A DNA stretch of 64,000 nt from Chloroflexota bacterium. Lineage in GTDB: Bacteria > Chloroflexota > UBA11872. Numbering within the stretch: position 1 is the stretch's first letter; each line of letters begins with the position of its first letter. The DNA lies in NCBI GenBank assembly GCA_965198285.1, contig OZ240251.1, forward strand, positions 624,220 to 688,219, given 5' to 3'. Both the position numbers and the translations under genes were made by a program. Below the pieces are notes generated by a model, which saw only the letters and a list, made by a program, of their open reading frames with translations, did not search any database and was not told the DNA's origin. Shown here in pieces: positions 48,434-50,656 of this stretch.

Positions 48434-49948
48434 GAGTTTGATCCTGGCTCAGGATGAACGTTGGCGGCGTGCTTTACCAATGCGAGTCGAACGGTACGGG
48501 GAGGCTCTTCGGAGCGCCCACGACCGTGGCGTCCGGGTGCGTAACACGTAGCTAACCTACCGGTCGGTGGGGGAAAACTCCGGGAAACCGGAGGTAATCC
48601 CGCATATGGTCGCCTGGTAGACAGGTAGACAAAAGCTGTTGTCGGGGAACCGGCAATGGCGCCGGCTGAGGGGGCTGCGGCTGATTAGCTAGTTGGTGGG
48701 GTAATGGCTCACCAAGGCTGTGATCGGTAGCGGGTCTGAGAGGATGATCCGCCACACGGGGACTGAGATATGGTCCCGAGCCCTACGGGGTTTAGCATGG
48801 AGGAATCTTGCGCAATGGGCGAAAGCCTGACGCAGCGACGCCGCGTGGGGGATGAAGGCCTTCGGGTTGTAAACCCCTTTTCTGGGGGACGCAAATGACG
48901 GTACCCCAGGAATAAGCCACGGCTAACAGGGTGCCAGCAGCCGCGGTAATACCTTGGTGGCAAACGTTATCCGGAATCACTGGGCGTAAAGCGCTCGTAG
49001 GCGGCACGGCAGGTGTTCGGTGAAAGCCCCCGGCTTACCCGGGGAGGGTCCGAGCAAACCGCCGAGCTAGAGGCAGGCAGAGGACCGTGGAACTTCCGGG
49101 GGAGTAGTGGAATGCGTAGATCCCGGACGGAACACCAGAGGCGAAGGCGGCGGTCTGGGCCTGACCTGACGCTGAGGGGCGAAAGCGCGGGGAGCAAACA
49201 GGATTAGATACCCTGGTAGTCCGCGCCGTAAACGATGGACGCTAGGTGTGTGGGGGGCTCAACCCTCCTGCGTGCCGGAGCTAACGCGGTAAGCGTCCCG
49301 CCTGGGGACTACGGTCGCAAGACTAAAACTCAAAGGAATTGACGGGTGCCCGCACAAGCAGCGGAGCGTGTGGTTCAATTCGAGGCTACGCGAAGAACCT
49401 TACCGGGGTTTGACATCACACGGCCATCCCGCGAAATCGGGAGTTCCTTCGGGACCGTGTGACAGGTGCTGCATGGCTGTCGTCAGCTCGTGCCGTGAGG
49501 TGTTGGGTTAAGTCCCGCAACGAGCGCAACCCTCGACGCTAGTTGTATATGTCTAGCGTGACTGCCGCGGACAACGCGGAGGAAGGTGGGGATGATGTCA
49601 AGTCCGCATGGCCCTTATATCCCGGGCTACACACACGCTACAATGGCCAGTACAACGGGCAGCAACCTGGCGACAGGAAGCGAATCCCTAAAAGCTGGTC
49701 TCAGTTCGGATTGCAGGCTGCAACTCGCCTGCATGAAGTCGGAGTTGCTAGTAACCGCAGGTCAGCACACTGCGGTGAATACGTTCCCGGGCGTTGTACA
49801 CACCGCCCGTCACGCCATGAAAGTCGGCAACACCTGAAGCCGGTGAGCTAACCCTTGGGAAGCAGCCGTCGAGGGTGGGGTTGGCGATTGGGGCGAAGTC
49901 GTAACAAGGTAGCCGTAGCGGAAGCTGCGGCTGGATCACCTCCTTTCT
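48434..49948 (+). rRNA. rrs: 16S ribosomal RNA
   Basis: 5' GAGTTTGATCCTGGCTCAG...GTGCCAGCAGCCGCGGTAATAC...GCATGGCTGTCGTCAGCTCGTG...GTACACACCGCCCGTCA...GGATCACCTCCTTTCT 3'. No 23S or 5S gene follows. Confidence 0.95.
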
Positions 49949-50128
49949 AGGGAATGCGTCGCTCGGTTTCGGCCGAGCGGCCACCCAGGTTGAGCGATCA
50001 CGCGGAAATGCCGTCGCATTGACGGCTCCCGCGCGCCAGACCAAAAAAATCCATCGAGTCGACAGGAATGGCTCAGCCTCACACTCACTCTTTCCCTGTC
50101 AAGGTCCTCCATGTGCCACCATGCACAC

Positions 50129-50455
50129 GGAGCGTCGGGCCGGTCAGGCGGCCGCTCCGGTTCACGCCGGAGAGGAAAGTCCGCACTTCACAGAGCGCGG
50201 TAGCGGGTAACACCCGTCGCCCAAGTCGGTTCACGCCGGCAAGGGCCGGAACAGGGGCACAGTGACGATGCCCACGCCCCCAGCCGGGGGCGCGGGAGTG
50301 AAACGGCTAACCTCTACCTGAAGCAAGGCCAAGTCGGGACGCCACCAGGCTGCTCGCCCAGTCCCAGGTAGGCTGCACGAGGCCGGCGGCAACGCCGGTC
50401 CCAGATAGATGGCCGCCCACGACAGAATGCGGCTTATCGACCGGTCCGACGCTCT
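50129..50455 (+). ncRNA. rnpB: RNase P RNA (bacterial type A)
   Basis: GGAGAGGAAAGTCCG (P4/CR-I)...GGTAACACC...AGCAAGGCCAA...GGTAGGCTGC...CCAGATAGATGGCCGCCCACGACAGAATGCGGCTTATCG (CR-IV/V); P1 pairing GAGCGTCGGGCCGGT / ACCGGTCCGACGCTC. Strong similarity to E. coli M1 RNA motifs. Confidence 0.85.
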
Positions 50456-50581
50456 TCGGTAACCGGCGGCGCCTGTCCGGAAGCTGCGCTTGGACGCCGA
50501 TTCTCGATTCGGAACCCTTGCGTGCCCGCCAGCCGCCCAGACATCAGCCCGCCCAGCCCCCACTGGTTCGCTACAATGGCG

Positions 50582-50656
50582 GGCGGGGTGGAGCAGTGGT
50601 AGCTCGTCGGGCTCATAACCCGGAGGTCGTCGGTTCGAATCCGACCCCCGCAACCA
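50582..50656 (+). tRNA. tRNA-Met (CAU), initiator-like
   Basis: Cloverleaf: acceptor GGCGGGG/CCCCGCA with mismatched 1:72 pair, D-arm GAGC/GCTC, anticodon arm TCGGG-CTCATAA-CCCGG with three consecutive G:C pairs (initiator hallmark), T-arm GTCGG-TTCGAAT-CCGAC, encoded CCA. Confidence 0.8.

Follow-up and report, generated by a model that had tools for sequence, protein, structure and literature searches.

An unlinked 16S rRNA gene followed by RNase P RNA and initiator tRNA genes: a candidate rRNA operon variant of a deep Chloroflexota clade

Genes and processing stem at the locus

A stretch of 64,000 nucleotides (nt) from a Chloroflexota bacterium (GenBank assembly GCA_965198285.1, contig OZ240251.1, positions 624,220 to 688,219 of the forward strand; hereafter the window) carries a 16S ribosomal RNA (rRNA) gene, rrs, that is followed on the same strand by rnpB, the gene for the RNA of ribonuclease P (RNase P), and then by the gene for an initiator tRNA. 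We called RNA genes with Rfam covariance models over the whole window, and tRNAs also with ARAGORN. No match to large-subunit (LSU) or 5S rRNA was obtained anywhere in these 64 kb. With no 23S gene within 14 kb downstream or 48 kb upstream, the 16S gene is unlinked in the sense of Brewer et al., who set the limit at more than 1500 bp between 16S and 23S (bioRxiv 10.1101/705046). The locus comprises the following features, with handles of the form L006 denoting loci of the surveys described below.

48128-50657 (+): conserved block, from the promoter region to the tRNA 3′ end; colinear with L006 (95.5%) and L023 (95.8%)
48146-48154 (+): candidate rrs operon promoter, extended -10 element TGcTACGAT; motif match only
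48258-48285 (+): 5′ arm of the pre-16S stem, a putative RNase III substrate; inverted repeat with 50078-50105
48426-49946 (+): 16S rRNA, full length; SSU_rRNA_bacteria (RF00177), 1455 bits, model 1-1533
50078-50105 (+): 3′ arm of the pre-16S stem; 24 nt separate it from the extended P1 helix of rnpB
50130-50454 (+): rnpB with its terminal P1 helix extended to 16 bp; inverted repeat and covariance model
50136-50452 (+): RNase P RNA (rnpB, type A), Rfam match; RNaseP_bact_a (RF00010), 170.2 bits, model 1-367
50455-50571 (+): spacer between rnpB and the tRNA, genus-specific; no canonical terminator found
50572-50577 (+): -10-like TACAAT, candidate dedicated tRNA promoter; -10 to -5 from tRNA +1
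50582-50653 (+): tRNA, Rfam match; 63 bits
50582-50656 (+): initiator tRNA-Met(CAT), ARAGORN; CCA encoded

These calls can be compared with a preliminary description of the locus, made from the letters of the sequence without database searches. It had proposed an unlinked rrs followed by rnpB and an initiator-type tRNA-Met, and had named the RNaseP_bact_a model as a check on rnpB; the lack of LSU and 5S matches, the covariance models and ARAGORN bear out this succession of genes, and rnpB was accepted at 170.2 bits against a gathering score of 100 (E = 3.5e-53). Its 16S gene likewise stands and proved to be full length; the ends given for it (48434-49948) were off by a few bases. The gene order was correct and the spacings of 180 and 125 nt were slightly off: by our coordinates, 16S and rnpB lie 189 nt apart (183 nt when rnpB is taken to begin with its extended P1 helix, at 50130), and the tRNA follows rnpB after 129 nt. 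The 16S gene of the window also bears a 15-nt insertion at 48638-48652, near position 209 of the small-subunit model.

The tRNA-Met carries the hallmarks of a bacterial initiator, namely a 1:72 mismatch, A11:U24, three G:C pairs and an encoded CCA. In the ARAGORN cloverleaf, G1 faces A72, so no Watson-Crick 1:72 pair is formed, and the D stem (GAGC/GCTC) includes A11:U24. The CAU anticodon is borne on a stem closed by the three G:C pairs G29-31:C39-41, which, together with a mismatched 1:72 pair, had already been picked out in the preliminary description; this three-G:C stem is identical in all 29 genome loci that carry the tRNA. Position 1:72 varies among the initiator tRNAs of the clade (CxA, UxU, GxA and AxA), and one group (L007, L010, L013, L015, L026 and L029) has U1-A72, which is able to form a Watson-Crick pair and is unusual for a bacterial initiator.

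Within rnpB, the P1 helix is an inverted repeat of 16 bp (50130-50145 / 50439-50454). Conserved region I (CR-I) reads GAGGAAAGTCCG at 50172-50183, compared with the consensus GAGGAAAGUCC, and CR-V, with which it forms the P4 helix, reads ACAGAATGCGGCTTA near 50423-50437 (consensus ACAGAAnnCGGCUUA). Across an alignment of 14 lineages, both regions are invariant and 34 of the 72 consensus pairs show double compensatory changes, a pattern that indicates purifying selection on the structure. The type-A assignment of the preliminary description thus holds for CR-I, CR-V/P4 and P1, but its claim of completeness does not. The full set of type-A peripheral helices is not present, as 43 consensus positions (model 162-204) have no counterpart in the window, where the RNase P RNA measures 317 nt against a model of 367 positions; it is accordingly a reduced type-A form. 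By type-A anatomy, the absent positions are probably P13/P14. Family membership is unaffected, since such losses are common elsewhere: peripheral helices of this kind are often absent in other lineages (PMC8172020).

The 16S gene is enclosed by a 28-nt inverted repeat whose arms (48258-48285 and 50078-50105) are 93% complementary and form the core of a much longer leader/trailer duplex. This leader/trailer stem was found in every locus having a complete 16S gene. RNAalifold, run on an alignment of 15 distinct versions, returned 25 pairs, 15 of them with compensatory double changes, so that the 16S gene lies within a covarying helix of the kind that marks rRNA operons. Beyond the 3′ arm, rnpB begins after 24-30 nt in the window and after 5-46 nt across loci. 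In L006 and L023, the 3′ arm motif is partly duplicated just before rnpB (ctcttgccctgtcaaggt, then cctctttccctctcaaggt), so that 46 nt separate the stem from rnpB, against 27 nt in the window.

Distribution and age of the layout

We scanned one genome per species, covering 185,579 bacterial and archaeal species, for the 3′ end of the 16S gene (GGATCACCTCCTT) followed after 191-251 nt by the RNase P CR-I motif (GAGGAAAGTCC), both as exact anchors. The scan returned 35 loci, 33 of which are titled Chloroflexota, Chloroflexi or Anaerolineales. The remaining two lie on contigs of 1.5-2 kb in bins of other phyla; they are nearly identical to one another and to Chloroflexota-type loci and are therefore probably mis-binned. 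The preliminary description had called the arrangement unusual, and at the tested spacing only Chloroflexota-type loci indeed appeared among the 185,579 species. Many of the 35 loci belong to chromosome-level records of 2-4.4 Mb. In every one of them, a full-length rnpB (152-206 bits, one copy being cut by a contig end) stands behind the 16S gene on the same strand at a spacing of 162-209 nt, and the initiator tRNA then follows on the same strand in 29/35. A second scan, in metagenomes, looked for the junction itself, that is, the rnpB CR-V motif followed within up to ~70 nt by the 5′ end of tRNAfMet. It yielded eight loci, all with rnpB and then the tRNA; six have a 16S gene upstream, one is too short to tell, and the eighth, L043, is considered further below. 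In all 43 loci with a complete copy, rnpB matched over its full length at 152-206 bits, well above the gathering score.

Identity of the 16S gene to that of the window is 98.3% for L006 and L023, about 92% for two further groups, 82-85% for three further groups and 74-77% for L009, L011, L025 and L032; between groups it falls to 73-77%. Under the usual 16S thresholds, the lowest of these identities would correspond to class-level divergence or deeper. Because the order has been kept through such deep divergence, it is an old conserved character and not a rearrangement of one genome, and the 16S-rnpB layout is, as judged from these loci, the lineage-wide norm of a deep Chloroflexota clade.

Homologues of the PheT protein of the window share 88-91% identity with proteins of unnamed or 'Chloroflexota bacterium' metagenome-assembled genomes (MAGs), and only 40-42% with those labelled Dehalococcoidia. 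SAR202 and Dehalococcoides probe sequences gave no match, and two Chloroflexi probe targets were matched, which we take as a lead only. At 48781-48800 the 16S gene reads CCCTACGGGGTTTAGCATGG, where most bacteria have CCTACGGGAGGCAGCAG; this is presumably the 341F/EUB338 site. This variant, or a one-base variant of it (GTG for TTT in group B), was present in the representatives of every one of the six groups, and no 16S gene tested had fewer than three mismatches to 341F. Common V3-V4 primers and the EUB338 probe would, given these mismatches, probably miss the clade.

The distance between rnpB and the tRNA differs among relatives. The tRNA begins 5-7 nt after rnpB in 12 genome loci, 14-15 nt after it in 6 and 44 nt after it in 2; the spacing is 129-135 nt in the window and in L006 and L023, and 1.0-2.7 kb in 7 genome loci.

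In both inspected loci of the 1.0-2.7 kb class (L012 and L034), protein genes lie between rnpB and the tRNA. The tight loci (18/35) leave 9-19 nt from the last P1 base pair to tRNA +1. Since tight junctions occur in the deepest-branching group and in two others, they are most simply taken as ancestral. At such spacing, the RNase P cut that matures the tRNA would also provide RNase P RNA with a near-mature 3′ end, and the strongest case for co-processing lies with the relatives that have a tRNA 5-15 nt past rnpB rather than with the window. One group shows pairing between the spacer and the 5′ flank of rnpB, maintained by compensatory changes between L007 and L010/L015. Two groups (L001, L008, L012, L030, L036, L039 and L041) additionally have, 1.2-2.4 kb beyond the initiator tRNA, a tRNA-Glu(TTC) gene in the same orientation; no counterpart was found downstream of the initiator tRNA in the window.

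Homology of the window to L006 and L023 stops at 48128 and at 50656/50657, and unrelated genome-specific islands adjoin on both sides. The block shared with these relatives is exactly 48128-50657, so that conservation itself outlines the unit proposed below.

Transcription signals, proposed processing and alternatives

On the plus strand between 48100 and 50700, TANNNT hexamers occur outside the RNA genes at three places: within TGcTACGAT, as TAGTGT at 48302 within the leader, and as TACAAT before the tRNA. From the upstream island to the 16S leader stem, the hexamer within TGcTACGAT is the only one. At the equivalent place, groups A, C and F have TATAAT, L006/L023 have TACTAT/TACCAT, and group B has TTGACA-18-TATCAT; a single -10 hexamer thus precedes the leader arm in each group, taking the form TGcTA(C/T)NNT in the window's groups. 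Between 16S and rnpB in the window (49947-50135) there is no TANNNT at all, nor does one occur at a fixed distance ahead of rnpB in any rrs-linked group, and a consensus scan found no promoter-like or terminator-like plus-strand site between the three genes of the window. By these motif scans, 16S-rnpB has one upstream promoter-like element and none between the genes, and a -10-like hexamer stands before the tRNA.

The signals are tidiest in group B. The only promoter-like site of L009, a member of this group, is TTGACA-18-TATCAT upstream of the 16S gene; group B further has a 15-bp hairpin followed by T6 about 12 nt past the tRNA, and no signals between the three genes. By these predicted signals, group B is a clean operon, with a single consensus promoter and a single terminator bracketing all three genes. 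For the window, co-transcription of rrs and rnpB is the best reading of the predicted elements, because the covarying stem brackets the 16S gene, rnpB follows ~30 nt later and no promoter-like or terminator-like element stands ahead of it.

The preliminary description had gone further in suggesting that all three RNAs may be co-transcribed and co-processed. That suggestion fits the anatomy of rrs and rnpB, but the window tRNA, which lies 129 nt away behind a TACAAT of its own, is probably not a plain third cistron. A TANNNT hexamer at -10 or -11 from tRNA +1 is present in 13/13 detached loci (tRNA at least 44 nt from rnpB) and in 0/20 tight loci, against a background frequency of 0.36% per position. 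The hexamers before detached tRNAs are TA(G/C)AAT, TATCAT or TAACCT, and since nothing else in the upstream sequences can be aligned between groups, a hexamer abutting the tRNA is kept in no fewer than four or five independent lineages. A purine stands at +1 in 9/12 detached genome loci and a pyrimidine in every tight locus, counts that are not phylogenetically independent; the window tRNA has G. In the tRNA-Glu genes of the clade, TAGAAT-type hexamers are found at -37 to -47 instead. The tRNA-abutting hexamer thus looks like a local -10 consensus, its position next to the initiator tRNA being special, and the window tRNA is probably at least partly independent of rrs-rnpB. We read these patterns as a tRNA that acquired its own promoter on separating from rnpB, with a predicted transcription start that coincides with the mature 5′ end or lies no more than a few nt from it.

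Collectively, these observations lead us to propose, with a probability of about 72%, that the locus is a lineage-typical rRNA operon in which the 16S gene, unlinked from 23S and 5S, is followed by rnpB and the initiator tRNA, and that it would be expressed in the following manner. Transcription would begin at a single promoter ~100 nt upstream of the leader stem (-10 at 48146-48154), and the polymerase would read through the leader, the 16S gene and the trailer into rnpB. An RNase III-type enzyme would cut the leader/trailer helix (48258-48285 / 50078-50105) as in ordinary rRNA operons, freeing pre-16S and leaving rnpB ~25-30 nt from the new 5′ end, after which nucleases would trim RNase P RNA to its extended P1 helix. 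In the form we take to be ancestral (18/35 loci), RNase P, in cutting at the 5′ end of the tRNA, would at the same time give its own RNA a near-mature 3′ end; in one group, the terminator directly after the tRNA would end the unit. In the genus of the window, where the tRNA appears to have moved 129 nt off and to have gained its own -10 and purine +1, it would probably be transcribed for the most part independently, and transcripts of rrs-rnpB may still read through into it. A likely consequence is that the output of RNase P RNA, and ancestrally also that of initiator tRNA, would be tied to 16S rRNA synthesis.

Several points weigh against this proposal. Gene identities, the conserved order, covariation and the occurrence of motifs come directly from the sequence comparisons, whereas promoters, start sites, co-transcription, RNase III cuts and the other nucleases, mature ends and the coupling to ribosome synthesis are predictions based on motifs and structure. 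A non-consensus rnpB promoter inside the trailer is possible, the promoter rules of Chloroflexota being poorly known, and neither scanning nor folding found a terminator after rnpB or after the tRNA in the window. E. coli RNA polymerase starts ~7 nt downstream of the -10 element; with the hexamer only 4 nt from tRNA +1, a start at that distance would fall inside the tRNA, so its role as a promoter is not secure. The genome scan was limited to a single 60-nt spacing window and gives neither the fraction of Chloroflexota with the layout nor its presence in other phyla at other spacings. The window, finally, covers 64 kb of the genome, and a second rnpB or a second initiator tRNA may lie elsewhere.

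The alternative that survives best, although we consider it unlikely, is that the operon broke and left adjacent but independent genes, each with its own unrecognised promoter, in an order without functional coupling. Such independence would suit the window tRNA, which appears to have its own -10 element, and the L043/L044 lineage described below, where promoter-like sites before rnpB show that this gene can be promoter-proximal within the clade. It accounts poorly for order, strand and a spacing of 162-209 nt that are kept in 35/35 loci while the flanks reshuffle. Nor does it sit well with rnpB itself, which starts 5-46 nt past a covarying stem, leaving little room for a promoter, and is preceded by no -10-like hexamer in any rrs-linked group; in group B, moreover, one promoter and one terminator surround all three genes.

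Full-length matches of 152-206 bits in all 43 complete-copy loci, the invariance of CR-I and CR-V and compensatory changes at 34/72 helix pairs make it very improbable that this rnpB is a redundant or decaying copy and that the functional RNase P, whether its RNA or a protein-only enzyme, is encoded elsewhere; the absence of 43 Rfam consensus positions, and the fact that only 64 kb of the genome is visible, are what speaks for such a copy. That a chimeric join at a repetitive rRNA gene placed rnpB and the tRNA behind the 16S gene, a misassembly the preliminary description had itself raised, is effectively refuted: metagenome assemblies often break or are joined at rRNA genes, and the short-read MAG L033 has a scaffold 'NN' join inside its 16S 3′ end, but unrelated projects yielded the junction at 35 genome loci and 6 metagenome loci, many of them in chromosome-level records, L006 and L023 are independently assembled and colinear with the window over 48128-50657 at 95.5-95.8%, and the leader arm pairs and covaries with a trailer arm lying just before rnpB, which a chimeric join would not yield.

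Neighbouring features, possible ancestry and known systems

Immediately downstream of the tRNA lies a variable toxin-antitoxin island, which the preliminary description had anticipated and for which Pfam identifies ParD/ParE and HicA/HicB.

50799-53806 (+): variable toxin-antitoxin island, directly downstream of the tRNA; Pfam
50799-51125 (+): ParD; Pfam 34.8 bits, cut-off 21
51118-51417 (+): ParE; Pfam 34.8 bits, cut-off 23
within 53082-53330 (+): HicA; Pfam 44.6 bits, cut-off 27
53378-53806 (+): HicB; Pfam 164 bits, cut-off 27

The open reading frames at 51777-52430 and 52464-53078 of the island had no Pfam match. Positions 50658-53171 of the window (ParDE and the two open reading frames) are absent from L023, and 50657-53921 is replaced in L006 by 2.4 kb of unrelated sequence, so that this region differs among species of one genus. 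A second copy of the tRNA 3′ half, as expected of an integrated element, was looked for, but the only match was the tRNA itself, and no integrase was found. On the upstream side, the window has a 14.7-kb insertion (33448-48127) relative to L023, L006, L037 and L019, located between a gene with an S-adenosylmethionine (SAM) riboswitch and the rrs promoter; it encodes fibronectin type III repeat proteins of 2153 and 1044 aa, also with immunoglobulin-like and Calx-beta domains. The riboswitch (S-box; 33296-33401, minus strand, 77 bits) lies upstream of a gene for a pyridoxal phosphate-dependent enzyme (31841-33088; Pfam PALP), and in relatives it is found only ~350-640 nt from the 16S gene, in divergent orientation.

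Farther downstream, two unusual tRNA genes lie 4 nt apart on the plus strand, at 61686-61760 and 61765-61840. The first folds into a normal short-arm cloverleaf; its anticodon is ACT (loop CU-ACU-AA), its discriminator base is G, and CCG takes the place of CCA. ARAGORN labels it Ser, yet the long variable arm typical of tRNA-Ser in bacteria is missing, and the anticodon loop looks like that of tRNA-Arg(ACG) with U in place of G36. A scan of viral contigs gave no match to this first tRNA. The second, which scores 40 bits, combines an anticodon loop of 8 nt (cu-UGCA-aa) with a D stem of 3 bp and an acceptor stem that contains an AxC mismatch. No -10-like hexamer was found just upstream of either tRNA.

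The eighth metagenome locus, L043, points to how the arrangement may have arisen. It carries rnpB, the tRNA after 24 nt and the start of a 23S gene 415 nt later, with no 16S gene in the 13.9 kb upstream; three promoter-like sites stand ahead of rnpB, including a TATAAT ending ~10 nt before its 5′ end. L044, an independent assembly of the same organism, has rnpB, the tRNA and then 3.3 kb of 23S. The rnpB of L043 is 80-84% identical to those of two rrs-linked groups, and the organism-labelled homologues of the protein gene adjoining rnpB in this lineage are mostly from Chloroflexota. The 23S gene of L044 (1-3298, minus strand) spans 3298 nt for 2633 model positions and hence probably contains one or more insertions (an intervening sequence or intron).

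A sister lineage with rnpB-tRNAfMet before 23S suggests an ancestral 16S-rnpB-tRNAfMet-23S operon. As the module stands behind 16S in some lineages and before 23S in another, the simplest history would be an ancestral linked operon with different break points; no fully linked 16S-rnpB-tRNAfMet-23S example was among the loci found. Possible, though doubtful in our judgement, is a fuller scenario in which the common ancestor of a large set of Chloroflexota spanning several classes had such an operon, which would have broken after the tRNA in the clade of the window and before rnpB in L043/L044. The fused ribozyme would then mature its own 3′ end by cleaving the attached tRNA, possibly in cis, so that one transcript would couple 30S rRNA, tRNA processing and initiator tRNA supply, and the unfused tRNA would be leaderless and independent of RNase P.

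The proposal, if correct, makes rnpB a conserved part of a transcription unit for rRNA in lineages whose 16S differs by up to 26%, and would offer a simple way of tying the synthesis of RNase P RNA, ancestrally also of the initiator tRNA, to ribosome synthesis. The relatives, rather than the window, would contain a natural fusion of ribozyme and substrate in which RNase P creates the end of its own RNA, and the L043/L044 lineage provides a concrete hypothesis on how the Chloroflexota rRNA operon came apart. The junction may also serve as a practical marker, in that two phylogenetic marker RNAs lie on one short fragment, in a clade whose 16S mismatches the 341F/EUB338 site.

To our knowledge, bacterial RNase P RNA is generally treated as the product of a stand-alone gene. 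In the literature searched, which left out most subscription journals, no description of an rrs-rnpB or rnpB-tRNAfMet unit in bacteria was found; this supports novelty without proving it, and the locus apparently represents a conserved rRNA operon variant that has so far gone undescribed.

The canonical bacterial rrn operon has the order 16S, tRNA-Ile/tRNA-Ala, 23S and 5S, with RNase III acting at the stems and RNase P at the spacer tRNAs. The present locus shares with it an upstream promoter-like element, a long covarying 16S helix, a downstream tRNA expected to depend on RNase P and, in one group, a terminator. It differs in having no 23S or 5S, and in carrying behind the 16S stem an RNase P ribozyme gene and an initiator tRNA in place of elongator tRNAs, so that the enzyme processing spacer tRNAs would itself be a product of the spacer. 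E. coli rnpB is monocistronic, with its own promoter and terminator, and its 3′ extension is removed by RNase E. The RNA discussed here is likewise of type A and would be made as a precursor requiring 3′ trimming; unlike the E. coli gene, it has no promoter or terminator of its own that we could find, and its 3′ end would ancestrally have been set by cleavage of the adjacent tRNA. Frank, Harris and Pace reportedly engineered, in 1994, self-cleaving RNase P RNA-pre-tRNA conjugates with the tRNA tethered to circularly permuted ribozymes. Those conjugates resemble the tight loci in joining ribozyme and substrate on one RNA chain, whereas the link here is natural and runs from the 3′ end of P1 through a 9-19 nt tail to tRNA +1, with cleavage in cis a prediction only.

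Unlinked rRNA genes have been documented in Chloroflexi (class Dehalococcoidia, GIF9) and in other phyla, and the trait is phylogenetically conserved and characteristic of Chloroflexi (Brewer et al., bioRxiv 10.1101/705046). The window agrees with those Chloroflexi in keeping rrs apart from 23S; that study dealt neither with RNase P nor with the genes after 16S, whereas the downstream partners are here defined and conserved. Leaderless tRNA transcription is attributed to Nanoarchaeum equitans in a source cited by PMC10941002. Like the Nanoarchaeum tRNAs described there, the detached initiator tRNAs have a promoter-like element at a fixed and very short distance, with a purine +1 in the window; unlike them, the case concerns a single tRNA, in bacteria that keep RNase P, and is put forward from a -10-like hexamer only, the hexamers of tRNA-Glu lying at -37 to -47. 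In yeast mitochondria, tRNA-fMet, RPM1 (the RNase P RNA gene) and tRNA-Pro form one locus whose RNase P RNA is matured from larger precursors (PMC3790967). The yeast initiator tRNA lies upstream of the RNase P RNA gene, the organellar RNA is A/U-rich and reduced, rRNA is not linked to it, and its maturation depends on the Rpm2p protein; with an RNase P RNA gene beside tRNA genes that include the initiator, the RPM1 locus is nonetheless the nearest natural parallel to the arrangement described here.

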